Source: Syntrophorhabdaceae bacterium
Lineage (GTDB): Bacteria; Desulfobacterota; Syntrophorhabdia; Syntrophorhabdales; Syntrophorhabdaceae
Direction: 5' to 3'
Length of the DNA: 64,000 bases
Assembly (NCBI GenBank): GCA_963665295.1
Contig: OY762209.1
Coordinates: 2,976,001 to 3,040,000, forward strand
The notes beneath the pieces were generated by a model. The model had not been told where the DNA came from. It saw only the letters and a list, made by a program, of their open reading frames with translations, and did not search any database. Shown here piece by piece: positions 2,581-14,682 of this stretch (the stretch's first letter is position 1; each line of letters starts with the position of its first letter). A program made the translations under genes and the position numbers.

Positions 2581-3303
2581 ATGAGACTTAAAGTCCTCGG
2601 CACGGGAACATGCATTCCCTCCCTGAAGAGGGGTTCTTCCGCCTACGTGGTGACCGCAGGAAACCGGACCGTCCTGGTGGACGCGGGCCCGGCTACGGTA
2701 AGAAGGCTCCTTGAATTCGGCTACACCGTGGATGACGTCGATATTGTCATCATCACTCATTTTCATGTGGACCACACAGCCGACCTGTCCACTTTCCTCT
2801 TTGTCTGCAACTATGGCCTTGTCCGGCGTGAAAAGCCGCTCCTCCTTATCGGGGGAAGGGGGATGCGCAGGTTTTACAAGGGCCTTCTCGCCGTATACCC
2901 GTGGCTCAAGCCGAAGTCTTATCGTCTTCTCGTAAAGAGCATGTCCGCAGGGGTCCTGGAAGACGAAGGGCTTGTGATCCGGACGAAGGGGGTGAACCAT
3001 AACCCCGAGAGTATCGGGGTGAGAATCAGCGATGGGGCGAGCATTACCTTCACCGGTGATACCGACTATTCGAGGAGTCTTGTCGCTCTGGCCCACCACA
3101 CGGACCTTTTGGTCTCGGAGTGTGCCTTTCCTGAAAGAAAGGCGAAGGGTCACATGAACCTCGCGGTCGTGGAAAAGGTGGTCCGCGACGCGGAGCCCGG
3201 GAGAGTGCTCCTTACGCACCTCTACCCGGAATGGGATGACTTTCAGGGCTTGCTCCATGCCCCCTACCTTCTGGGCGAGGACGGTCTTGAAATAGACGTG
3301 TAG
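2581..3303 (+). CDS. MBL-fold metallohydrolase, RNase Z-like
   Basis: LGTG start, THFHVDH metal motif, TGDT, GHM, THLYP. Confidence 0.8.
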   Translation: MRLKVLGTGTCIPSLKRGSSAYVVTAGNRTVLVDAGPATVRRLLEFGYTVDDVDIVIITHFHVDHTADLSTFLFVCNYGLVRREKPLLLIGGRGMRRFYKGLLAVYPWLKPKSYRLLVKSMSAGVLEDEGLVIRTKGVNHNPESIGVRISDGASITFTGDTDYSRSLVALAHHTDLLVSECAFPERKAKGHMNLAVVEKVVRDAEPGRVLLTHLYPEWDDFQGLLHAPYLLGEDGLEIDV

Positions 3304-5196
3304 TTATATCTTTTTCTTGAGGACGCAAATCCCTTCGGCGGATTCCAACTCGTACCGCTTCGATTTCTTCAGTTCCGGCACCAGTTGCCCTATAGCTTGG
3401 GTTGAAATGATCACGAGCTTTCCCTCCTGTTTGAGGTAGGACATGCCTCTCTTGACGAAGGCTTTTGTCGCTTCGGCGAGAGGTAATTCCTCCTCCCACG
3501 AGTAGTTGAGGGAAGGCTGGACAAAGATGAAGTCGAAGGCGTTGCCCAGAAGGAAGGGGAACTCAATTTCCAGATGGAAGAACCCGTTTCTCTTGGCGAT
3601 GTCCTTCGATTCGGCGAACCATCCCTGGCTTCTTATCGAGGTCCATGCGGCGTCGTTGCCGTCAAGGGCAAAGAGCATCTCCTGGATGCGCTTGTTCTCC
3701 ACGGTCTTGGTGAAATAGGTTGCCGTCATCACATCCAGAAGGTCCCTGATCCGCTCCGTGTAGACCAGGAGTTTGATCTCCGTGGCACTTCTGAGTTCGA
3801 GGTCCTCTTTGATCTTGTCGGAGAGAGAGTAAAAGAGGGTATAAAGTTCCTTGAATTCCTGGATCACGTCTTTGGGGTGCTTGTTGAAGAGGGCCATCTG
3901 ATTGGTGGAATCGATTGCATTGACGATACTCTTGAGAGGCATCCCTATGAGGGGGTTGCCCAACCGGTAGTTTCTTCCGGAGAGGCCGAACCGGCTCTTC
4001 ATGGTGTTCTGTAGAATGTCGAAGGAGATGTGGGACCTCTCTATCCCGTAAAGGATGGTGTCGATAATGCACTTCTTCAGGGCCGATTCCTCTTCCCATT
4101 CAGCTCTGAAGGTATTCTTTTCCCTGTAGGGCAGTACGAAAGACAGGTACGCGAGGGCGTCTACCAACCGGGTGCTGAGGGCGCCGAAACCGGGGGTTAC
4201 GTCGAGTATTCTGAGGGCGAAAATATCCTCTTTCGTGTATCTCCTGCTCTTTTCTCCGAGGATTATTTCCTCGAGGTGAGGATTGACCTGGCTTCCTTTC
4301 TTGCTGAAAAGGTAGGAAAGTATGTCGGTATGGTCGTAACTGTTGATCAGACCCGATCCTTCAGAATCCTTCTCCCGGACCGTAATATTCTTTTCCTTCA
4401 GATAAGACTCGGTGGAGGGAAGGGGCCATGCGGAGAAAAATTGCCGGTATGCCCGTATGATCGTGGGGTAATAGTCGACTTTCTTCTTCTGGTCGCTCAA
4501 CTGTTTATCAAGGGAGACCCGCTTTTCCGTCAAGTCTTTGAGCAGTCTTTTCCGTTCCTCTTCGAGCATGTCGGGCAGGAGCTTTTTCAAACCCGTGCTC
4601 GAAAATATCTGGCAGAAAAGGTGGAGCGCCTGTTCATCGCCTTCGAAGACAGCTCCTTCCACATCGATCTCAATCATTCTTATTTCGAACTGGACAGGTC
4701 TCCGTATGAGGATCCAGTGCTTTCCGTTGGTCAGAATCCCCCAGGGAGTTCTGGACTTCTTCAGGAGGTAGAGGATCTGGTAAATGGGCATTTTGTTCTC
4801 GAATTCGAGATAGAAACCGCTTATGCCCTCATGGAGGTTCCTTCCGTATCTTTTCAGCAACACGATGCCCAGGGTGTTGGTGTAGTATTCCTGGGTGCCC
4901 CAGAGGTGTGAGTTGTTTACCCTTTCCTCTTCGGAGACGAAGAGGGCGACGTCGGGATTCTTGATGTGTTCTTCAAAGAACTTGGGTTTTGACTCGTACG
5001 TATGGCCGAGGCTCTTCAGCACGGGTTTTACGAGGTGGATCTCCGTGTGGATCTCGCTCGCGAATTTCTTAATCTCCTGAAACTTGGTCAACAGATCAAA
5101 GAGGGACGCGCCCAGGTCGGTATTTTCGGGGAGAGAGAGGAGCGCCTCGATACTTTCCAGGGAGAAAAGCGTATTTCTTAGAATATAGGATGACAT
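3304..5196 (-). CDS. Degenerate type IIG (Eco57I-like) restriction-modification-like protein, predicted catalytically inactive
   Basis: Family scaffold motifs in order (KPVLKSLG, PDVALF, WGILTNG, RILD...G.G, LYGIE, GNPLIG, FFHLEIEFP...FD), but E-x-K, DPACGSG and NPPY are replaced. Confidence 0.7.
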   Translation of the reverse strand: MSSYILRNTLFSLESIEALLSLPENTDLGASLFDLLTKFQEIKKFASEIHTEIHLVKPVLKSLGHTYESKPKFFEEHIKNPDVALFVSEEERVNNSHLWGTQEYYTNTLGIVLLKRYGRNLHEGISGFYLEFENKMPIYQILYLLKKSRTPWGILTNGKHWILIRRPVQFEIRMIEIDVEGAVFEGDEQALHLFCQIFSSTGLKKLLPDMLEEERKRLLKDLTEKRVSLDKQLSDQKKKVDYYPTIIRAYRQFFSAWPLPSTESYLKEKNITVREKDSEGSGLINSYDHTDILSYLFSKKGSQVNPHLEEIILGEKSRRYTKEDIFALRILDVTPGFGALSTRLVDALAYLSFVLPYREKNTFRAEWEEESALKKCIIDTILYGIERSHISFDILQNTMKSRFGLSGRNYRLGNPLIGMPLKSIVNAIDSTNQMALFNKHPKDVIQEFKELYTLFYSLSDKIKEDLELRSATEIKLLVYTERIRDLLDVMTATYFTKTVENKRIQEMLFALDGNDAAWTSIRSQGWFAESKDIAKRNGFFHLEIEFPFLLGNAFDFIFVQPSLNYSWEEELPLAEATKAFVKRGMSYLKQEGKLVIISTQAIGQLVPELKKSKRYELESAEGICVLKKKI

Positions 5197-5205
5197 TGCT
5201 TTGAA

Positions 5206-5234
5206 ATAATAGACGTTTGAAGGCGTTTAGTCAA
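5206..5234 (-). promoter_or_regulatory. sigma70-type promoter of the RM-like gene
   Basis: TTGACT (5234-5229), 17-nt spacer, TATTAT (5211-5206), 9 nt before ATG at 5196. Confidence 0.6.
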
Positions 5235-5472
5235 GGAGGGGCGCATCTTTTTCTTCCTTGTCCACACTCATTCTTTGGGTTCTCTCGATTTCCTTCAGTT
5301 TCATCCTTATTATCGTCACGAGACCGGCGATGCCTATCCAGAAGATCATAAGGGTCTGGAATATAATGAACCGGGCATACGGCGCGGTGGGCCTCACGTC
5401 TATTCTGTCTTCGGCCCAGAGAGCGCCCGCGGCGAGCAACATGGAAAAGGACAAGAGTATTATTCTTTTCAT
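5227..5472 (-). CDS. Small (81 aa) membrane protein at the end of the sdh-Rieske-cyt b operon
   Basis: GGAGG then ATG at 5472, 8 nt after the cyt b stop; signal-like N-terminus plus one TM helix (FIIFQTLMIFWIGIAGLVTII); no CxxCH. Confidence 0.7.
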   Translation of the reverse strand: MKRIILLSFSMLLAAGALWAEDRIDVRPTAPYARFIIFQTLMIFWIGIAGLVTIIRMKLKEIERTQRMSVDKEEKDAPLLD

Positions 5473-5480
5473 CCAGCCTC

Positions 5481-6545
5481 CTAGCTTAGAAAACCGATAA
5501 CCGTCATAACCACGAAGTAGGCGGTGTAGGCCAACCCGATCCACGTAAACAAGGGACTTCTCTGTCCGAGGCCTGATTTGCGGTCGAAGAGGGGGATGAG
5601 GAAGAAGAAGAGCATGCCTGACGTGATGAGAAGGATTGCCAGGGTCTCGCCGTTCATCCCCATGATCTCTCCGGGGAATAACTTGAGGGTCTGGAAGAGG
5701 AACAGGAAGTACCATTCGGGCTTGATGTTTTCCGGGGCAGGGGCAAGAGGGTCGGCCCTTTTCCCCAGTTCCGGCGGCAGAAGCGTCGCAAGGGTGACCA
5801 CGATCCCCAGCATGACAAGCCATACCATGAGGTCCTTATAAAAGAGATTCGGGAAAAAGCGGATCTCCCGGCGCGGTTCCTTTTGGAGCGATAGGGGCAC
5901 GCTCATCCCGTGGTACTGCACGAGGAGTACGTGGATGCCTATCAGGGCAAGGGTCACAAAAGGAAGAATTGAGACGTGAAAGGCGTAAAAGCGGGTGAGG
6001 GTCTCGCCCGTCACGTCTATGCCGCCCCTGAGGAAGGCCTTGATGAAACCCCCGACAAGGGGGAGATTCCCCGCGCCGCCCGTGGAGACCCTTACTGCGG
6101 CAAATGCCCGCTCGTCCCAAAGGAGAAGGTAACCACTGAGGCCGAAAAATATGGATATGGCCAGAAGAAGGAAACCTGAGAACCAGAGAAGCTCTCTCGG
6201 TTTCCTGTAGGATTTGAGGAGGAGGGTGCTGAACACATGGATAAAAAGGACCACAATGGCGATCTGAGCGCCCCAGTGATGGAGGGAGCGGAAAAACCAT
6301 CCCATATTCAGTTTCGTGACGATGTCGATTATGCTTTTGTATGCATATTCGAAGTGGGGCACATAGTAGAGCGCAAGGACCATACCTGTGATAAACTGGA
6401 GCACAAAGAGAAAGAGTGCGATCCCGCCCGTGTAATACCATATGTCGTATCTGTGGGAAGGCACGAATTTAGACGAGGCGAGCCGCTGGATCCCGGTTAA
6501 ATCGTACCGTTCCTCAAACCAGGTTCTAAGCCTTTGACGCTTCAA
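5481..6545 (-). CDS. Cytochrome b subunit of a Rieske/cyt b complex (unsplit)
   Basis: Four heme His in helices B and D, GYLLLWD, Qo motif PEWY; likely TTG start at 6545. Confidence 0.92.
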   Translation of the reverse strand: MKRQRLRTWFEERYDLTGIQRLASSKFVPSHRYDIWYYTGGIALFLFVLQFITGMVLALYYVPHFEYAYKSIIDIVTKLNMGWFFRSLHHWGAQIAIVVLFIHVFSTLLLKSYRKPRELLWFSGFLLLAISIFFGLSGYLLLWDERAFAAVRVSTGGAGNLPLVGGFIKAFLRGGIDVTGETLTRFYAFHVSILPFVTLALIGIHVLLVQYHGMSVPLSLQKEPRREIRFFPNLFYKDLMVWLVMLGIVVTLATLLPPELGKRADPLAPAPENIKPEWYFLFLFQTLKLFPGEIMGMNGETLAILLITSGMLFFFLIPLFDRKSGLGQRSPLFTWIGLAYTAYFVVMTVIGFLS

Positions 6546-6996
6546 CGTGTATCCCCTTCCTGGCAACGATCAGTTTTTTCCCTTCTACCTTCATTTCGAA
6601 AAATTCGAGCGGCTTCGGGGGAGGGCCCCCGATATTCCGGCCTGTCTCGTCAAACCACCCTTTGTGACATGGACAATAGAACTTCCTGTCTTCCGGTTTG
6701 TAGGTCACATTGCACTCCATGTGGGTGCAGACCCCTTTTAGGGCGAAGGTTTTGCCTTCCGCGTTCTTAAAGACTAACCCGAGTTTCCCTCCCCATGGGA
6801 AGGGCTTCACCGAATTGTCGGGAATATCGAGGAAGTCAGCGGCATTGAGCACCACAAAATCGGGTTCCTTGCCAAGGGTGGGGAAGGCGAACCTCGCGAG
6901 GGCATAAAGACTTCCCGACGAAAAAGCGACAAGCCACCCCCCGAACAAGGTATTGAGGAAGGTTCTCCGGGTTACGAGGGAATAATCAAGTTTCAT
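6526..6996 (-). CDS. Rieske [2Fe-2S] protein
   Basis: Tat-like RRTFL plus TM helix; box I CTHMEC, box II CPCHKG; GPPPKPL. Confidence 0.92.
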   Translation of the reverse strand: MKLDYSLVTRRTFLNTLFGGWLVAFSSGSLYALARFAFPTLGKEPDFVVLNAADFLDIPDNSVKPFPWGGKLGLVFKNAEGKTFALKGVCTHMECNVTYKPEDRKFYCPCHKGWFDETGRNIGGPPPKPLEFFEMKVEGKKLIVARKGIHVEASKA

Positions 6997-7726
6997 CCTT
7001 CCTCCTCCCCCGGAACCGGTATTTGAGAAGGCTTTTTCTGAGGCCCACTATGGAGTCCGTGGGTCTCACATCCTTCGGGCACGCGTCGATACACCTGAGC
7101 ATGGTATCACACCCCCATACTCCCTGCTCGCTGTCGATCTCTTCGAGGAGACGTTCCGGCCTTTCGTCTCTGGAATCGAGGATGAACCTTTCGAGTTTGG
7201 CAAGGCTGGCAGGGCCCATATAATCGGGGTTACGCGAAAGCACGGGGCAGGAACCATAACACGACGCGCAGAGGATGCAGTTCACGAACTGGTCTGTGCG
7301 CCTTTTCTCTTCCTCGCTCTGGGGTAGCTCCTTTTCGGGGTCACTCTGTTTCCTTATGAGCCATGGCCTCACTTTCTCGTACATATTCCAGAAAGGCGTC
7401 AGGTCCACCACCAGGTCTTTGATAATCCCGAAATTCGGCAAGGGTTCCAGTATGATCGTGTTCTTGCCGAAGGAGGCTACCTGGGTTCTGCACGCGAGGT
7501 CTATCCTGCCGTTTATCACCATCGCACAGGACCCGCAGACCGCCGACCTGCACGAAGACCTGAACGAAAGGGTTCCGTCGATCTCGTCCCTTATCCTTAT
7601 GAGTACGGCGAGTACCGTGAGACCCGGGATCACTTTTATCCGATAGGCGGCGAACCGGGGTTCCCGGTCCGGTTCCCGTGCATCAAATCTCAGGATCTTG
7701 AAAGTGTAAGTATCTTCCGTGATCAA
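6986..7726 (-). CDS. sdhB: Succinate dehydrogenase/fumarate reductase Fe-S subunit
   Basis: SCRSAVCGSC...LAC, CILCASCYGSCP, CDTMLRCIDACP. Confidence 0.93.
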   Translation of the reverse strand: MITEDTYTFKILRFDAREPDREPRFAAYRIKVIPGLTVLAVLIRIRDEIDGTLSFRSSCRSAVCGSCAMVINGRIDLACRTQVASFGKNTIILEPLPNFGIIKDLVVDLTPFWNMYEKVRPWLIRKQSDPEKELPQSEEEKRRTDQFVNCILCASCYGSCPVLSRNPDYMGPASLAKLERFILDSRDERPERLLEEIDSEQGVWGCDTMLRCIDACPKDVRPTDSIVGLRKSLLKYRFRGRRKDET

Positions 7727-9426
7727 TATTTCCTCTCCATGGGAGCATAGTTCGTTATCACTACGTCCTTAAAGGAGATGGACGGCGTTCCGTCATCACC
7801 TATTTTCGCAATGGTGTGCTTGAGCCAATTCGCATCGTCCCGTTGAGGGAAATCTCTGCGGAAATGGGCGCCCCTGCTTTCTTCCCGCAGGAGGGCCCCG
7901 AGGGCTATGGTGTGGGCGACCTCCAGCATGTATTCGAGTTCCAGCGCGTTCATAAGCTCGTAATTCATGTGCAGGGAGGGGGACGAAACATGGACGAGCT
8001 TATATCTCTCCTTGATCCCGGAGATATCTGCAAGGGCCTTTTCGATCTCCTCTTTCTTTCTGAAGATCCCTACGCAGGCGCTCATGGTTCTGCTGAGGTC
8101 AAGCTGTATCTTGAAGGGCCGCTCATTACCTTCGGTGAAAAGCCGCCGGACCTTCTCTTCTATGTCCGCCTTTCGCCGCATGAGAAGGCCTTCGTCGGGT
8201 CGAGGGGGGTCTTCCTGGAGGTACCGCGCTATGGAGAAGGATGCCAGCTTGCCGAAGACAATGGTATCGAGCAACGAATTGCCGCCGAGCCTGTTCGCGC
8301 CGTGAACGCTCACGCACGCGCACTCTCCTGCCGCGTAAAACCCCCTGATTCCGGTCTCGCACCTCTCGTTGGTATCGATGCCTCCCATGGAGTAATGCTG
8401 GCACGGCATTATGGGGATCGGCTCGCGCACGGGGTCGATGCCGATGAAATCGATGCATATCTTTCTGATGCCGGGGAGTTTCTCCTGGATCTTCTTCTCT
8501 CCCAGATGCCTGAGGTCGAGTTTTATGTACTTGCCTAAAGGATGCTCGAATCCCCTTCCTTCGTCGATCTCCGTCTGTATGCACCTCGACACGATATCCC
8601 TGGGTGCGAGTTCCATAGCGGCGGGGACATATCTCTGCATGAACCTTTCATCGAGGTTGTTTACGAGGTAGCCGCCTTCACCCCTGCACGCCTCTGTCAT
8701 AAGGATATTTGTGCCTATGAGGGCGGTGGGGTGAAACTGGACGAATTCCATATCCTTTATGGGTGCGCCCGCCTTGTAGGCGGCGCCTATGCCGCTTCCC
8801 GTATTGATAAGGGCGTTCGTGGAATAGTAATATACCCTCCCGTATCCGCCCGTGGCGAAGAGGGTTGTCTTCGCCAGGATGGGCACGATCTCGCCCTTGA
8901 GAAGATCGAAGGCTATGACCCCGTGGCATTGCCCGTCCCGGGCGACGAGGTCCACGACGAACCATTCGGGATAGACCCTGACGCCCTTTGACACCGCCCT
9001 CTCGTAGAGGGTGTTGAGGAGCACATGTCCCGTGATGTCGGCGGAATAACAGGTCCTCGGATATCCTGCCCCTCCGAAGGGCCTCTGGGCGATGGACCTG
9101 TCGGGAAACCGGCTGAAAGGACAGCCCCAGTGCTCCATTTCATAGACGATCTTCGGCGCTTCCCTGCACATCAGTTCCACGGCGTCCTGGTCGGAGAGGT
9201 AGTCGCTCCCCTTCACCGTATCGAAAGCGTGCTTCTCCCATGTGTCGTCCTTCCCGTCCGGGTTGTTTGCGAGGGCCGCATTGATACCACCCTGGGCCGC
9301 GATCGAATGGGACCTGATGGGATGGACCTTGGACAGGATTGCAACATCGTAGGTTTCGCACAAGCCCACTGCTGCCCGGAGCCCTGCGAGGCCTCCGCCG
9401 ACGATGAGAATGTCATGACGAAGCAT
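7723..9426 (-). CDS. sdhA: Succinate dehydrogenase/fumarate reductase flavoprotein
   Basis: GGGLAG, RSHSIAAQGG (covalent FAD His), QFHPT, EACRGEGG, ELAPRD, HYSMGG, HGANRLGGNSL. Confidence 0.95.
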   Translation of the reverse strand: MLRHDILIVGGGLAGLRAAVGLCETYDVAILSKVHPIRSHSIAAQGGINAALANNPDGKDDTWEKHAFDTVKGSDYLSDQDAVELMCREAPKIVYEMEHWGCPFSRFPDRSIAQRPFGGAGYPRTCYSADITGHVLLNTLYERAVSKGVRVYPEWFVVDLVARDGQCHGVIAFDLLKGEIVPILAKTTLFATGGYGRVYYYSTNALINTGSGIGAAYKAGAPIKDMEFVQFHPTALIGTNILMTEACRGEGGYLVNNLDERFMQRYVPAAMELAPRDIVSRCIQTEIDEGRGFEHPLGKYIKLDLRHLGEKKIQEKLPGIRKICIDFIGIDPVREPIPIMPCQHYSMGGIDTNERCETGIRGFYAAGECACVSVHGANRLGGNSLLDTIVFGKLASFSIARYLQEDPPRPDEGLLMRRKADIEEKVRRLFTEGNERPFKIQLDLSRTMSACVGIFRKKEEIEKALADISGIKERYKLVHVSSPSLHMNYELMNALELEYMLEVAHTIALGALLREESRGAHFRRDFPQRDDANWLKHTIAKIGDDGTPSISFKDVVITNYAPMERKY

Positions 9427-9429
9427 GGG

Positions 9430-9735
9430 TTATGTCATCTTGAAATAGATGATCAGCAAGGCCGCGGAGATGATCGATGCGGTTACCTGGGACAGCCAGA
9501 ACAACCTCTTTTCCTTTCTGTACCCAAGGTCTATGGCTATGGTTCTGAGGCCATAGATGCTGTGGAAGGTGAAGAGGACCATGAGCAGCACATCGAGGGT
9601 GGGCTGCCGGTGCAGGCTTAAGGCCCAGTCGGGTTTCGTCTCCTTCGTGAAGAGAAAGAAGCCGGAAAACACCTTTATTCCCACGAGGGCTATGAGAAAG
9701 ACCCCACTGATCCTGTGAAAAAGCCATATGAACAT
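9430..9735 (-). CDS. sdhC: Succinate dehydrogenase membrane anchor (single 3-TM subunit)
   Basis: HRISG and FHSIYGLRTIAID motifs, three hydrophobic segments, 3 nt before sdhA. Confidence 0.8.
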   Translation of the reverse strand: MFIWLFHRISGVFLIALVGIKVFSGFFLFTKETKPDWALSLHRQPTLDVLLMVLFTFHSIYGLRTIAIDLGYRKEKRLFWLSQVTASIISAALLIIYFKMT

Positions 9736-9837
9736 GATAGTTGTTATCTAGCAACAATCCATTTCTTTGTCAAGGGCAATTATGGACGGAGATTTGGCTT
9801 GACAAATACGCGCGCAATGGTCTATTAGATACGTTCA

Positions 9838-9981
9838 TGGCTCGATGTAGCTGTGCCCGCAGGCCGGATAGTGAAATCAATCCCATTTTTAGTTCCGCCG
9901 AATTACCGCGCAAGATGACGGGGACTTTAGACTACGGGAAAGACCGGGAATCGCCGGTATGCCGGTCGGGAGCTATAACCA
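9838..9981 (+). ncRNA. Candidate structured RNA (rod with central bubble, 6S-like architecture) or structured leader
   Basis: Manual pairing of ends: TGTAGCT/AGCTATA, CCCG/CGGG, GCCGG/CCGGT, ATA/TAT; inner TCCC/GGGA and AGTTCC/GGGACT; TTGACA at 9799-9804 upstream. Confidence 0.3.
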
Positions 9982-10008
9982 CAATAATTCCGGGAGGTGC
10001 GAGGAAGC

Positions 10009-10512
10009 ATGGCGGACTATGACGATGAAAGGCCGGATTGGCGCGAGATCGATAGAAAGAGAGATCGAAGCGGTCACGGAGGCGGGGGAGGAAAAGAAGA
10101 GAAGAAAGACCGTCCCCCGGACAGATGGGCGGCCGGGAGGAGAAAAGAGGCGTTAGACAGGCTCTTTATGGGCGAGAAAGGCACCATCGAGCACGATAAA
10201 GCCTACCGCAAACTGCACAACGCATACGGGTCCGAGAGATTTGCCGCCACCGCGAAGAAATATTTCGAGAAGTACGGCCCCCCTGATGATACGCCCACTC
10301 TCATACTCGTTCTCGATACAAAAGACGAAGATATCATACTCAAGGTCTTTGAGAAGTTTACTGCCACATATTCGCAACTTTCAACCCGCCACAAAGAGGA
10401 CATACTGAGAAAGCTGTCGATCATGGCGCTTACCGACAAGTCCAGGGAGATGCGGGCACAGGCGCAGAAATTGATGGAGGAACTGAACAACAGGGCGCAA
10501 GAGGCGGGATAA
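10009..10512 (+). CDS. Hypothetical helical protein
   Basis: GAGGA then ATG at 10009; charged N-terminus WREIDRKRDRS followed by a helical domain. Confidence 0.7.
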   Translation: MADYDDERPDWREIDRKRDRSGHGGGGGKEEKKDRPPDRWAAGRRKEALDRLFMGEKGTIEHDKAYRKLHNAYGSERFAATAKKYFEKYGPPDDTPTLILVLDTKDEDIILKVFEKFTATYSQLSTRHKEDILRKLSIMALTDKSREMRAQAQKLMEELNNRAQEAG

Positions 10513-10520
10513 TCCGCATA

Positions 10521-12869
10521 TCAGCCCTTTGAGTCCAGTATATCCCTTATCTTGGCCGCGAGGTCGTCAGGCATGATCGGTTTTGTGAGGAAGTGTATAT
10601 CCTCCTCGTAAATACCCCGCCTGTGGATAATATCCGCCGTGTAACCACTTATAAACAGGGCCTTTACCTCCGGTCTGATCTCTTTGATCCTTTCGTACAC
10701 GATCCGGCCGTTCTTTTTCGGCATAATCACGTCAAGAATAACGAGGCTGACGAGGTCCACCCCATTTATGAATTTCTCGATGGCATCGTCTCCGTCGATG
10801 GCTTCCACCACGGTGTATCCGAACTTTTCGAGTACTTCTCTGATGAGCGCCCGTGAATGGGCGTCGTCTTCCGCAAGGAGGAGGGTCTCCGACCCCCCCA
10901 CGATTCTTCTCGGCTTCTGGGCTGTTTCTTCCTCCTCCAGAGGCCGTATGAGAGGCAGATATATTTCGAAACCGGTACCCAGGCCCGGCTCGCTTCGGGC
11001 GTTGATATACCCGTTGTGCTGTTTGACAATGCCGTACACGATGGACAACCCGAGTCCCGTCCCCCTGCCCACCTCCTTTGTGGTAAAAAAGGGTTCAAAA
11101 ATATGTTCCATTGTCTCTTTGTCCATGCCCTTGCCCGAGTCGGACACGGTGATGCAGGCATACATTCCGGGTTTTCCGAAACCGAGGGCCTCGCACGCGA
11201 TGCTGTCCAGTGTTACCTGTTCCGTGGCGATTGAAAAGGAGCCGCCGTCGGCCATGGAATCCCGCGCATTGGTGGCGAGATTCATGAGTATCTGCTCTAT
11301 CTGGCCGGGGTCCGCAAATACGGTGACATTTCTTGTGTCATAACTCGTCTTGAGTTCAATGTCTTCGCCCATAAGCCTTACGAGAAGACGCTCCACCTTC
11401 CTTATCGCGTCGTTGAGGTCCACGGCCTTGGGCGCCATCACCTGTTTCCTGCTGAATGCGAGAAGCCCCTGGGTGAGATGGGTTGCTCTCTCCGCTGAGG
11501 CGAGGATGGGGTCGATGTATGCCTTTGTGGGATGGTCGTCGCCCATTTTCATGCGGAGCAGGCTTGCGTATCCGATAATCGCGGTGAGGATATTGTTGAA
11601 ATCATGGGCAACGCCCCCCGCGAGCTGCCCTATGGCCTCTATCTTCTGGGACTGGCGGAGTTGCGCTTCAAGGCGTTTGAGTTCGGTAAGATCGAGAAAA
11701 GAGGCGACCGTCAAGGTCGAGCCCGGCACAACGGCGGCGCTTACATAAACGTCGTGTGTCATCTTGTCCCGGTCCATGAAACGGGCCTCGTAGCCCTTAG
11801 GGGCGACATCGGGGCTGCTCTTCCTCAGTTCGCGGTAATGGGTTACCTCCTCGAGCATATCCGCGGGACAGAACTCCATCCATGTCATTATGCCCTCGAT
11901 TTCCCCCCTCTTATATCCGGAGAGATGCTCAAAAGCCGTGTTTACCATGGCTATCATGCCATTCTCGTCCAGTATCAGGTTTGCGTTGCCGGTAGTCTCG
12001 AAGATGGTGCGGTACCTGTACTCCGATTCGACAAGGGCGTTTTCCGCGCGGAGACGCTCGGCCAATTCCTTCTGAAGCTGCGTGTTTGTGGTGGTCAACT
12101 GGGCCGTCCGTTCATATACAAGTTCTTCGAGGTTCTTCCGGTACGAACGAAGCTCCGCGTCACGGGTCTCAATGTTGGTCACCATCTGGTTGAACCCCTC
12201 GGCGAGGAGGCCGATCTCATCCTTGCCATGGATTCGCGCTCTCACCGAGTAGTCCTTGTCCCTGGAAATCGTGCGCATCAGCGCCGCCAGTTCAAAGATA
12301 GGCCTCGTGACCGCCGCCTGAAGTTTCGTGAGCAGGAGATAGCTCATGAGGAGAGAAACGCCCATGACCGCGAAAAAGATCAGGGCGTACCGGGCCATTC
12401 TCGAATAGAAATGGGTCATGTCCGACCTGATGTACAGGGTCCCCACGGTTTCGCCGTCGAATTGGATCTGGCGGTAGAGATCGAGGTGTCTCATGCCGAA
12501 GTGGTACATATGGTTCCTGGGAAGGACGGCATGATGGGAAAAGGTGATACTGTTCCGCCAGTAGGTGGTGAATATGGCCCCGTTGCCGTCGTAGAGCACG
12601 GCACACTGGATTGAGGGTATGGCTTTGAGGGTGTCGAGGACTTCCCGGGCGCTCTTATTGTCCCTGAAGATAAGAGCTGATTTGACGTTTGAGCCCAAAG
12701 TCTCGGCCACTCCGGTGAGATCGTTGACCATGGACCGCCGCATGGATACGAGTTCCGTCGTGATGAATACAGCGCTCGCGAGAACAAGAGCCAGGGCGGT
12801 GGTGAAGGTGCACAGCAGCACCAGTTTATCCTTAATCGGAAGATCGTTAAAGGCCTTGAATGTTTTCAT
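10521..12869 (-). CDS. Membrane hybrid histidine kinase (periplasmic sensor-HAMP-PAS-HisKA-HATPase-REC)
   Basis: Two TMs, HAMP (DEIGLLAEGFNQM), AHDFNNIL, FEPFFTTK..GRGTGLGL, receiver LLAEDD...LDVIMP...KP. Confidence 0.93.
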   Translation of the reverse strand: MKTFKAFNDLPIKDKLVLLCTFTTALALVLASAVFITTELVSMRRSMVNDLTGVAETLGSNVKSALIFRDNKSAREVLDTLKAIPSIQCAVLYDGNGAIFTTYWRNSITFSHHAVLPRNHMYHFGMRHLDLYRQIQFDGETVGTLYIRSDMTHFYSRMARYALIFFAVMGVSLLMSYLLLTKLQAAVTRPIFELAALMRTISRDKDYSVRARIHGKDEIGLLAEGFNQMVTNIETRDAELRSYRKNLEELVYERTAQLTTTNTQLQKELAERLRAENALVESEYRYRTIFETTGNANLILDENGMIAMVNTAFEHLSGYKRGEIEGIMTWMEFCPADMLEEVTHYRELRKSSPDVAPKGYEARFMDRDKMTHDVYVSAAVVPGSTLTVASFLDLTELKRLEAQLRQSQKIEAIGQLAGGVAHDFNNILTAIIGYASLLRMKMGDDHPTKAYIDPILASAERATHLTQGLLAFSRKQVMAPKAVDLNDAIRKVERLLVRLMGEDIELKTSYDTRNVTVFADPGQIEQILMNLATNARDSMADGGSFSIATEQVTLDSIACEALGFGKPGMYACITVSDSGKGMDKETMEHIFEPFFTTKEVGRGTGLGLSIVYGIVKQHNGYINARSEPGLGTGFEIYLPLIRPLEEEETAQKPRRIVGGSETLLLAEDDAHSRALIREVLEKFGYTVVEAIDGDDAIEKFINGVDLVSLVILDVIMPKKNGRIVYERIKEIRPEVKALFISGYTADIIHRRGIYEEDIHFLTKPIMPDDLAAKIRDILDSKG

Positions 12870-13007
12870 AGTACCCTCACTGTTCGGCGCGCACAATTCT
12901 CGCGAGTTTCAGCAACTGGGAGCTTATGGTCAATTTCGCACGTCTCGCACTGTCCTGGTTGATCTGGAATCTGACCCTATTCCGCTCCATGTGGAAATTT
13001 ATAATTA

Positions 13008-14682
13008 GTCTCCATCCGGAAACCCCCATTTTCGAGCAAGCCCCCGGTCTATTGCCAGGGTGGGCGCTCAGCCGTCCGGTGATTCCGTCATCCCTTTTCG
13101 GATTTCACTCCATCGGGCCCGTTTTCCCCAGAGTCAGGGCGTAGCTCACCCTTGTCCCCTTGAGAAAATAGTCTTCTCTCATCATGAGGCCATCCTGATG
13201 CGGGCGATGACGAGAAGATTGTAGGAGACGATACTGGAGAGCACGTACCGGGCAAACCCTTCCCATCCTGTCCACGTCGCCCGGTCAAGGCCGAAGGACC
13301 GTTTCAATGTGGAGATGCCTGCTTCAATGCCCGCCCGGAAGTTCCTGAGCTTCTTGTAGACCCAGGTGCTCTTTGCCATGTCGAGGATGGAGAGCCCCCT
13401 CTTTCTGGCGAAGACGGCATCCTTGATATGGTTCTCCTTCGCATAGGCGAGGTTCTCTTTTGAGGCAAAGCCCCCGTCGGCCGTCACTTGGCGAGGCATC
13501 TTCCCGTACCACTCCTTATGCTGCTCAAGGAGGGATTGATACTGGTCGGTATCAGCGGGGTTGCCCGGGACGATGAGACACCCGATGATCATGGTGGAGC
13601 GTCCTCCTGTAAGGAACACCTTATGGCCGTACTCGGTATCCCTCCTCCCCTTCACGATGATGTCCGTGTGGTCCTCGAAGAAAGAGACGATCTTCTCGGA
13701 GGCGGGGACCTTCTCGTTCTTGAAGACTCTCCGGTCGGTCTGGTCGATGACCTTCCCGAGTATGCCCACGGCGCGTTCAAGTCTCCGGGCAAGCTCGCGG
13801 GCAGCGAAGGTGTCCATGAGATTATCGCCCTCGTAGGGGATGAGTTCGGTGATCGCCTCTTCGGCATATCCCTTCACGAGATTCGCATAGTGGAGGAGGT
13901 CCTTGTAGGCGCTCTTCCGTGTTCTGTCGTTCTTTGCATTGAGGATCGTCATGAGCTTCTTCTTGGCTACTCTCCTATGGTCACTGTAGGCATACCGGGG
14001 CACGGGAGCAAGCTCCTTCCCTTCGGTGAGTAACCGGGTAATGACGCGGATGCCGTCCACGATGAGCGATGAGTCGGTGGGGTGGTGGATGTTGGTCTCC
14101 ACCGTGGTGGAGTCTACTCTTACCACGCGGCCGGATTCTATCTTCTCCTTTACCGCGTAGCGGTTTACTTCCTGAATGATCGCCTCCCAGGTTTCTTCCC
14201 GTATCGCCTTTATGTTCTCCTGAAGGACCGATTTGGAGGGGTACTGTCCCATCTCCAATCTCGCGAAACTGCGGAGTGCGTCGGAGTCTTCCATGTGGAA
14301 GGCAAGCTCTTCATACGTCAGTTGGCGGTACTGCTTGAGTATGGCGATCCGGAGCACCTGTTCCGCGGTGAGCCCCTCTCTTCCCGTGTCGGTGCGACAG
14401 AAGGAGGTCATATCCCCGAAGACCAGATCCAGAAGGCGGGGATTGGCGTCTATGACCTTTGACATCTCCTGAAGCTCCTTTACGATAGAATGGCGCATCA
14501 TGGGGGAGAAGAGGCCTGTCTGGGGGTTGAATTTCTGGCGCATTCCGGAATCCTTTCTGAAGGCGTTAGGTAATGATATTGCCTTGTTACAACCATATTG
14601 TACCTCAGATGAGGGGCGAAACTCCAGGGGAATGTGGGGATTTGGGCAAATATTTCATGGGGTTAGGTTTCCGGATGGAGAC
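13008..14682 (-). mobile_element. Insertion sequence, 1675 bp (ISNCY/IS5-like DDE)
   Basis: Perfect 17-bp terminal inverted repeats GTCTCCATCCGGAAACC (13008-13024, 14666-14682); direct repeat TAATTA at 13002-13007 and 14683-14688. Confidence 0.95.
13182..14543 (-). CDS. DDE transposase (ISNCY-like)
   Basis: RVDSTTVETNIHHPTDS, TADGGF, RNFRAGIEAGISTLKRSFGL; intact 453 aa. Confidence 0.93.
   Translation of the reverse strand: MRQKFNPQTGLFSPMMRHSIVKELQEMSKVIDANPRLLDLVFGDMTSFCRTDTGREGLTAEQVLRIAILKQYRQLTYEELAFHMEDSDALRSFARLEMGQYPSKSVLQENIKAIREETWEAIIQEVNRYAVKEKIESGRVVRVDSTTVETNIHHPTDSSLIVDGIRVITRLLTEGKELAPVPRYAYSDHRRVAKKKLMTILNAKNDRTRKSAYKDLLHYANLVKGYAEEAITELIPYEGDNLMDTFAARELARRLERAVGILGKVIDQTDRRVFKNEKVPASEKIVSFFEDHTDIIVKGRRDTEYGHKVFLTGGRSTMIIGCLIVPGNPADTDQYQSLLEQHKEWYGKMPRQVTADGGFASKENLAYAKENHIKDAVFARKRGLSILDMAKSTWVYKKLRNFRAGIEAGISTLKRSFGLDRATWTGWEGFARYVLSSIVSYNLLVIARIRMAS

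Follow-up and report, generated by a model that had tools for sequence, protein, structure and literature searches.

A conserved gene cluster that joins complex II to a Rieske/cytochrome b core without cytochrome c: a likely new variant of a respiratory enzyme

Do a complex II and a Rieske/cytochrome b core that share one operon, with no gene for a cytochrome c among them, act as one enzyme or as two? The question is raised by a six-gene cluster that we analyzed in a 64,000-nucleotide stretch of the genome of a Syntrophorhabdaceae bacterium (contig OY762209.1 of assembly GCA_963665295.1, positions 2,976,001 to 3,040,000). We call the whole stretch the window and give positions in its numbering. 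The cluster lies at 5227-9735, entirely on the minus strand, and reads sdhC-sdhA-sdhB-Rieske-cytochrome b-81-aa gene (aa, amino acids) according to its open reading frames (ORFs) and their translations.

Rieske/cytochrome b complexes are defined by the hand-over of electrons to a high-potential periplasmic carrier. To our knowledge, complex II, alone among the respiratory complexes, is almost never found in supercomplexes. An earlier note on this DNA had put the cluster forward as a candidate energy-conserving complex. We found that the unit is real, deeply conserved, gained and lost whole and without a haem c subunit, and to this extent the proposal stands; physical contact, wiring and direction of flow did not gain the same footing. 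The unit is likely a new variant of a respiratory enzyme, made from known modules.

Packing, conservation and joint loss of the six genes

We found that the genes of the cluster are tightly packed. The spacings calculated from the coordinates (Table 1) are exactly the +3, -4, -11, -20 and +8 nt that the earlier note had listed for these six genes in this order; the Rieske/cytochrome b junction becomes -41 with a longer cytochrome b start. sdhB shares 4 nt with sdhA and 11 nt, read in a different frame, with the Rieske gene. The cytochrome b gene starts with TTG at 6545, with GGAAGGGG before it, and the longest ORF starts with TTG at 6566 and gives 361 aa. There is no further ORF between the genes, and no sdhD in the cluster. 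None of the six proteins contains CxxCH or a C(2-4 residues)CH sequence, as the earlier note had also observed of CxxCH.

We found that the gene order is conserved. All six genes occurred in this order on one strand in 28/29 orthologous loci from four families of the order. The five core genes were colinear in 70/80 further loci from public records, which come from named metagenome-assembled genomes (MAGs) and from S. aromaticivorans UI. Nine of the ten remaining loci end at a contig edge inside an upstream gene; the tenth is described below (L121). The 81-aa gene directly followed the cytochrome b gene in 29/29 loci of the order and in 78/80 of the further loci. The cytochrome b of the window is ~80% identical to that of several 'Syntrophorhabdus sp.' MAGs, 74% to that of S. 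aromaticivorans UI, and 68-69% to those of the Smithella and Smithellaceae MAGs among these loci. sdhB and the Rieske gene overlapped in 78/89 loci; the overlap was 4 nt in 51 of these and 11 nt in 27. The genes are thus not neighbors by chance. A lack of conservation in relatives, the first of the conditions that the earlier note had named as refuting its proposal, was not borne out, and the order was also found in a second clade.

This second clade came from a survey of the phylum (a sample of 401 genomes, with chosen contexts inspected). Six loci from three families had the same gene order, again without CxxCH. Their cytochrome b was 41-47% and their SdhA 57-62% identical to the window proteins, and a 105-124-aa protein with a layout like that of the 81-aa protein was encoded after cytochrome b. 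A fumarase beta-subunit gene or sucC adjoined the cluster in 3/6 of these loci. The nearest cytochrome b proteins outside both clades (43-50% identity) were encoded in Rieske-cytochrome b clusters with a gene for a nine-CxxCH cytochrome and no sdh. In a cytochrome b tree, this nine-CxxCH group was sister to the two Sdh-linked clades (98/98).

Some loci showed peculiarities of their own. In L038 (G034:C19:321004-321718), the sdhB match is split over two frames and contains a TGA, and in L034 (G010), sdhA aligns in two pieces; a frameshift or an assembly error is possible in each. In another relative, locus L052 (G040:C3:692033-702088) encodes an additional, distant cytochrome b (33% identical) within a frame of 623 aa. 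A Rieske gene lies downstream of it, and the same contig carries a haem-copper oxidase nearby. It is a different, conventional-looking quinol oxidation cluster.

We found that the two modules are present or absent together. We compared 41 genomes of the order and report counts and not a statistic, since relatives are not independent samples. Cytochrome b was present in 34/41 genomes, and 33 of those 34 had the orthologous SdhB. The remaining genome is 90% complete, and its cytochrome b is a fragment at a contig end. None of the genomes without the cytochrome b (0/7) had the orthologous SdhB; five had no match and two had only 38%-identical paralogues. These seven genomes fall in five genera, which implies that the unit was lost whole at least five times.

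When the cluster is broken, the Sdh parts stay with Rieske. In one genome (G015), sdhC-sdhA-sdhB-Rieske, followed by a thiamine-phosphate-synthase-like ORF, is on one contig (L165, C22), and cytochrome b, the small gene and the 630-aa neighbor described below are on another (L050, C21). In L121, from a Smithellaceae MAG, the end of a flavodoxin-like gene (positions 1-570) replaces sdhA before sdhB-Rieske-cytochrome b-small gene. Either the locus was rearranged or the contig is a chimera.

The source genome, which is complete (5.5 Mb, a single contig), offers no second set of parts. The cluster holds its only cytochrome b, its only Rieske protein, its only full-length SdhB (Fer2_3) and its only PF01127 protein, and no SdhD was found anywhere in the genome (no second PF01127 match at E <= 0.1).

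Motifs and family membership of the subunits

Judging from motifs and conserved residues, both modules look catalytically whole, with the dicarboxylate site, the three SdhB clusters, the SdhC His and Arg, the Rieske protein, and the four His and PEWY of cytochrome b. We measured residue conservation in alignments of 61-71 relatives (61 cytochrome b, 68 Rieske and 71 SdhC sequences).

The four haem His and the PEWY motif that the earlier note had seen in cytochrome b are present in the translation and in the aligned columns. H89, H103, H190 and H205 (numbering of the 354-aa protein) and P276 and W278 of PEWY were invariant; E277 and Y279 were conserved in at least 90% of sequences. The best NCBIfam model was cytochrome b6 (NF002990), at 200 bits under a cut-off of 325. 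Cytochrome b reads WYYTGG (Tyr or Phe) where b6 has a Cys. We take the haem ci-binding Cys of cytochrome b6 to precede the first helix, at this stretch, and on that basis the window protein lacks the ligand that defines a haem ci site. The haem c subunit that is a criterion for bc1/b6f complexes was encoded with the core in none of the related loci examined.

The Rieske protein has the features of the bc1/b6f type: both cluster-binding boxes, the disulfide Cys pair and an anchor of the twin-arginine translocation (Tat) type. R10-R11, C90, H92, C95, C108, C110 and H111 were invariant. High-potential Rieske proteins have Ser and Tyr after the CPCH box. The window protein has Gly and Phe at these positions, which would suit a menaquinol-type cluster of lower potential.

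SdhA is above the cut-off of the SdhA/FrdA family, with the catalytic and the linking motifs for flavin adenine dinucleotide (FAD) present. The dicarboxylate-site motifs noted earlier are in the translation: RSHS, HPT, TEACRGEGG, PRD, HYSMGG and GANRLGG, which we take, after E. coli SdhA, to be the dicarboxylate and FAD motifs, including the His that links FAD and the catalytic His, Thr-Glu and Arg. SdhB combines a 2Fe-2S domain with two Cys-rich cluster motifs and matched solved SdhB chains at 4e-49; its best solved relatives were mitochondrial-type SdhB and that of M. smegmatis Sdh2 (6lum_B).

The anchor is the unusual part of the Sdh module. A classical anchor consists of SdhC and SdhD or of one five- or six-helix subunit, and the window has one 101-aa SdhC of three helices. 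W4, R8, S10, H58, G62, R64, D69 and G71 were invariant, and H7, K21 and H42 were conserved in at least 90% of sequences; H42 is at the periplasmic end of helix 2. The best solved match, 6lum_C, was weak (E = 0.1). SdhC keeps the proximal-type His (H58), and its invariant Arg is presumably the proximal quinone-site residue. Among longer proteins related to SdhC, we found one of 209 aa, in which PF01127 was the sole domain, and none fused to cytochrome b or Rieske; this is weak evidence.

Hydropathy predicted three hydrophobic segments in SdhC, seven in cytochrome b, and one in the 81-aa protein after a signal-peptide-like N-terminus. The helix of the 81-aa protein has a conserved FW pair and is followed by a conserved charged tail, with no Cys or His after the signal. 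We predict that it is a small subunit of the unit.

Table 1. Genes of the cluster and neighboring features in the window
Feature	Position	Strand	Description
630-aa protein gene	3304-5196	-	Matches no Pfam or NCBIfam family; 30 nt downstream of the 81-aa gene
Promoter-like site of the 630-aa gene	5234-5206		TTGACT, 17 nt, TATTAT
81-aa gene	5227..5472	-	No Pfam or NCBIfam match; one predicted helix
Cytochrome b	5481..6545	-	354 aa; PF00033, 150.2 bits, and PF00032, 37.6 bits; fused b6 + subunit-IV type
Rieske [2Fe-2S] protein	6526..6996	-	156 aa; PF00355, 48.5 bits; twin-arginine motif and N-terminal anchor helix
sdhB	6986..7726	-	246 aa, iron-sulfur subunit; NF004616, 271.7 bits (cut-off 228); PF13085, 111.6 bits, and Fer4 domains
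sdhA	7723..9426	-	567 aa, succinate dehydrogenase/fumarate reductase flavoprotein; TIGR01812, 772.4 bits (cut-off 567.3); PF00890 and PF02910
sdhC	9430..9735	-	101 aa, sole membrane anchor gene; PF01127, 34.1 bits (cut-off 25.8)
Hybrid sensor histidine kinase	10521-12896	-	CHASE8, HAMP, PAS, HisKA, HATPase and receiver domains; ~0.8 kb upstream of sdhC
DDE transposase	13182-14543	-	Beyond the hybrid sensor histidine kinase

The flanks are unrelated to the cluster and encode an epimerase, a metallo-beta-lactamase-fold protein, the hybrid sensor kinase (on the same strand as sdhC), the transposase and a TonB receptor. The 630-aa gene trails the operon in most Syntrophorhabdaceae loci (45-69% identity) and has a promoter-like site of its own. 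A language-model look-up placed its product near Eco57I/MmeI-type N6-adenine DNA methyltransferases (score 0.93). A scan of 3000-10600 found no significant excess of promoter-like sites (7 versus 4.6 +/- 2.4 expected) and a modest excess of terminator-like sites (14 versus 7.9 +/- 2.9 expected). A TTGACA...TAGATA pair just upstream of sdhC, spotted by eye, failed the promoter scan.

One complex or two

Our preferred reading, which we hold tentatively and short of calling it probable, is that the six genes form one membrane complex in which the Sdh module replaces cytochrome c as the redox partner of the Rieske/cytochrome b core. It is based on the conserved packing, the joint loss, the way the cluster splits and a parallel gene fusion. 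Physical assembly, the path of electrons from Rieske to Sdh, the stoichiometry and the direction of flow are what we infer in this reading.

The fusion was found at a locus (L155) whose cytochrome b is 36% identical to that of the window. A single 418-aa chain there begins with an SdhB-like domain and continues through an internal twin-arginine motif and a membrane helix into a Rieske domain. The family comprises at least 120 protein clusters, and both PF13085 and PF00355 were present in 120/120 of the matches listed to the 418-aa chain. 'Class V' Tat substrates, as they appear in sections of one paper (PMC13673990), are a precedent for the topology of the fusion. By analogy, the fusion shows that a module of the Sdh type can be physically one with a Rieske/cytochrome b core across the membrane.

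The fusion bears on a difficulty of topology. The earlier note had cautioned that the Rieske protein and SdhA should face opposite sides of the membrane. This is borne out: the twin-arginine pair of the Rieske protein is invariant, SdhA and SdhB have no signal peptide, and a periplasmic Rieske cluster and a cytoplasmic Sdh on opposite faces count against a single complex. However, the opposite topology is no obstacle in principle because the fusion family spans both sides of the membrane in one chain.

If the six proteins do form one complex, Sdh would hold the place that a multihaem cytochrome holds in the sister clade. The complex would interconvert succinate/fumarate and (methyl)menaquinone/menaquinol, coupled to the proton-motive force through Q-cycle chemistry. 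Such a machine could be reversible. In one direction, it could carry out uphill succinate oxidation at an ordinary membrane potential; in the other, with plentiful fumarate, it could conserve energy as a fumarate reductase. The path from Rieske to Sdh would need a wire across the membrane, possibly haems on an SdhC dimer held by H42 and H58.

The energetics of such a machine can be estimated. The potential of the fumarate/succinate couple is +33 mV. For the methylmenaquinone of Syntrophus, part of a preprint gives E0' = -156 mV (10.64898/2026.08.18.745454). The calculated gap, with this Syntrophus value, is 189 mV. A two-charge reverse redox loop would require a proton-motive force of ~189 mV for succinate oxidation, and a four-charge route (Sdh, transmembrane wire, reverse Q cycle) would require ~95 mV. 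For the opposite reaction, fumarate reduction, a Q cycle moving two charges could conserve energy. A Q-cycle-boosted fumarate reductase would be thermodynamically tight with menaquinone and feasible with the methylmenaquinone of Syntrophus.

The fullest form of this reading is a self-contained complex II/III hybrid without cytochrome c, in which the high-potential branch of the Q cycle meets Sdh through a haem wire in a homodimeric SdhC. We regard this form as doubtful. If true, it would make the unit a fully reversible succinate:(methyl)menaquinone machine moving four charges per electron pair, and would let syntrophs with low-potential quinones oxidize succinate at the thermodynamic limit or gain extra energy from fumarate.

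Several observations weigh against a single complex or against this route for its electrons. The first concerns the wire. We take the helix-1 His of M. smegmatis Sdh2 SdhC to be the distal-haem ligand, and in the weak match to 6lum_C this His aligns with K21. Since the position of the distal-haem His is a conserved Lys, a two-haem wire through SdhC is unproven. The second concerns the anchor. An SdhC profile gave 24 strong matches in the phylum sample, 22 of them within ~4 kb of a cytochrome b match. Four weaker matches (L166-L169; genomes G426, G278, G160 and G127) were in stand-alone sdhC-sdhA-sdhB operons with no Rieske or cytochrome b gene nearby, and their SdhC (98-102 aa) keeps K21, H42 and H58. 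We had considered that the one-subunit anchor might be completed by cytochrome b; this idea lost weight with the four stand-alone loci, which share the SdhC type. Complexes II that have a single three-helix anchor subunit seem to make up a separate family. The SdhB of the stand-alone operons has a longer hydrophobic C-terminal tail.

The fusion family also limits what can be drawn from it. The L155 cytochrome b adjoins the fusion gene and carries a fused monohaem cytochrome c domain, and cytochrome b of this family branches elsewhere in the tree. The flavoprotein scored 450 bits against the TIGR01812 cut-off of 567, and its best model was TfrA-like. By these sequence comparisons, the fusion family is a parallel system and not an orthologue of the window cluster. 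In the cytochrome b tree, the two Sdh-linked clades themselves join weakly (83/53). The unit is also dispensable for some close relatives, since two of the seven genomes without it are from the window's own genus.

A metabolic need for succinate oxidation gained no support from gene profiles. Propionate oxidation via methylmalonyl-CoA has been suggested for Syntrophorhabdia MAGs (in a passage of PMC13248872). The methylmalonyl-CoA mutase family (PF01642) was missing in 5 cluster-bearing genomes and present in 6/7 cluster-less ones. The mutase family does not covary with the cluster, and this profile does not support a link of the cluster to propionate oxidation.

Finally, the genome is not poor in cytochromes c. 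The earlier note had seen no CxxCH protein in the unit. The absence of a cytochrome c holds for the operon only; the genome has 14 ORFs with at least two CxxCH sites (small tetra- and trihaem ones among them), two CcsA-type genes for cytochrome c maturation, and an alternative complex III beside a cbb3-type oxidase. With these multihaem ORFs, CcsA genes and oxidase, a conventional periplasmic acceptor is conceivable. CcsA-type maturation genes (PF01578) were found in 41/41 genomes of the order; this profile is uninformative on the partner because it is present in all of them.

The alternative complex III of the genome (L164, G000:C1:4616000-4628500) consists of molybdopterin/FeS, NrfD-type and ActD subunits and a multihaem c. 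Adjoining it are the cbb3-type oxidase (CcoN and a FixO/CcoP-like protein) and a copper ATPase, and a cytochrome bd oxidase is encoded elsewhere. The bearer of the alternative complex III and the cbb3 oxidase is a relative of an obligate syntroph.

An alternative is that the cluster encodes two ordinary, separate complexes whose co-transcription would serve only to have them made together, a succinate:menaquinone oxidoreductase and a Rieske/cytochrome b complex whose Rieske protein donates to a distant periplasmic c-type cytochrome. We consider this possible, with a probability well below even. Green sulfur bacteria provide a model: their petCB operon likewise has no cytochrome c gene, and their Rieske protein donates to a periplasmic c-type cytochrome. 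Besides the universal maturation genes and the multihaem ORFs, the alternative can claim that the parts of both modules look standard and complete, that SdhC keeps the Arg of its presumed quinone site, that the same SdhC type serves stand-alone operons, and that the fusion-family cytochrome b has a cytochrome c domain of its own. However, co-regulation alone rarely keeps order, overlaps and joint loss between clades so far apart (cytochrome b identity of only 41-47%). After a split, Rieske was found with sdhCAB and not with cytochrome b, and an SdhB-like domain and Rieske are fused in a paralogous family. No candidate cytochrome c was linked to the cluster in any of > 110 loci. A high-potential acceptor is also hard to name for obligate syntrophs, and the cluster did not covary with haem-copper oxidases: PF00115 had no match in 20/34 cluster-bearing genomes and was present in 2/7 without the cluster. 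Because 20/34 bearers lack such a match, oxygen respiration is not the general purpose of the cluster.

Mitchell's scheme suggests a third arrangement. His original Q cycle of 1975, as outlined in part of PMC5600118, had succinate dehydrogenase as the second donor to center N. The unit might correspondingly be a supercomplex coupled on the cytoplasmic side, in which Sdh passes its electrons either to haem bH or to the quinone bound at Qi, and the Rieske electron leaves for an external acceptor in the periplasm. The difficult first reduction of menaquinone would fall to haem bH and the easier second one to Sdh, which would remove the uphill step of succinate oxidation. In addition to this historical precedent, the Sdh iron-sulfur chain ends at the cytoplasmic face, near haem bH and Qi in textbook structures; on that side of SdhC, R8, S10 and H58 are invariant and H7 is at least 90% conserved, and the canonical distal His is absent. 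The cytochrome c exit kept in the fusion family also fits. However, an acceptor ~150-200 mV above fumarate/succinate would be needed to generate proton-motive force, the cluster has no linked acceptor gene, its hosts are strictly anaerobic, and more than half of the bearers have no haem-copper oxidase match, as given above. We think this arrangement unlikely.

A last alternative concerns the substrate. The flavoprotein might act on another dicarboxylate or on a sulfonate, and not on succinate/fumarate. The fusion family raises the point: its flavoprotein falls short of the SdhA/FrdA cut-off, carries Glu at the position of the catalytic Thr, and is encoded beside a sulfolactate-type gene. In contrast, the window SdhA has 772 bits against a cut-off of 567 and retains the FAD-linking His together with the motifs that hold Thr-Glu, Arg and His. 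SdhA of the second clade (787 bits) and of the stand-alone clade (747 bits) also pass TIGR01812, and genes of the tricarboxylic acid cycle (fumarase beta subunit, sucC) flank the cluster of the second clade. We consider another substrate very improbable.

Significance and comparison with known systems

If the single-complex reading is true, the unit would link the succinate/fumarate couple to the membrane potential of strict anaerobes in a way that is new. It would bear on how syntrophs meet the cost of oxidizing succinate when their quinone has a potential as low as that of methylmenaquinone, and on the role of Rieske/cytochrome b in organisms without an obvious high-potential acceptor. A cultured strain, S. 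aromaticivorans UI, carries the operon (L067), which makes the reading directly testable. If the complexes are separate, the cluster would still be a useful marker, a conserved six-gene module that is annotated gene by gene and is gained and lost as one. In the papers that we searched, sdh is nowhere described as linked to Rieske/cytochrome b; the S. aromaticivorans genome paper (Nobu et al. 2015) may mention the cluster.

Taken as a whole, the unit misses one defining feature of each of its two families: the two-subunit or five-helix anchor of complex II and the haem c subunit of Rieske/cytochrome b complexes. Like classical complex II (E. coli SdhCDAB; M. smegmatis Sdh2, PDB 6LUM), it has SdhA and SdhB that pass family cut-offs and a PF01127 SdhC with a proximal His. 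Unlike those enzymes, it has one three-helix anchor and no SdhD, and its operon runs on into Rieske, cytochrome b and the small subunit. With the Rieske/cytochrome b complexes of Desulfobacterota that have a nine-haem c, the unit shares the fused seven-helix cytochrome b, PEWY, the four His and the Tat-type Rieske. Those clusters have no sdh, whereas the window has no haem c, a small one-helix protein after cytochrome b, and sdhCAB upstream.

The fusion family resembles the window in having a flavoprotein, one SdhC, an SdhB-like protein, Rieske and cytochrome b in one cluster. It differs in that one membrane helix ties the periplasmic iron-sulfur protein to the cytoplasmic one, whereas in the window they are encoded by separate genes.

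Actinobacterial III2IV2 and Tetrahymena I-II-III2-IV2 are precedents for direct contact that replaces a diffusible carrier. We know of no described supercomplex that joins complex II and a Rieske/cytochrome b core genetically, or that lacks cytochrome c. A Rieske-type cluster does occur in one complex II: M. smegmatis Sdh1 (class F, PDB 7D6V) has a membrane-embedded Rieske-type [2Fe-2S], as presented in part of PMC8054011. In Sdh1, however, the cluster is inside a single six-helix anchor, with no cytochrome b or Qo (quinol-oxidizing) site, and the window SdhB is distant from 7d6v_B (E = 2.6e-22, versus 4e-49 for the best match).

In its proposed function, the unit is like the reverse redox loop of sulfate reducers and propionate syntrophs. 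The need of syntrophs for a membrane-potential-coupled succinate link is described in parts of PMC10308238. The dihaem type-B enzymes (the succinate:quinone reductase of Bacillus subtilis and the quinol:fumarate reductase of Wolinella succinogenes) provide the same kind of link that we propose here, coupling succinate/fumarate and a low-potential quinone to the membrane potential. They do so with a five-helix, dihaem FrdC/SdhC, whereas in the window the coupling would come from a Q-cycle core of Rieske and cytochrome b. Compared with the dihaem enzymes, the window unit could move up to twice the charge per electron pair.

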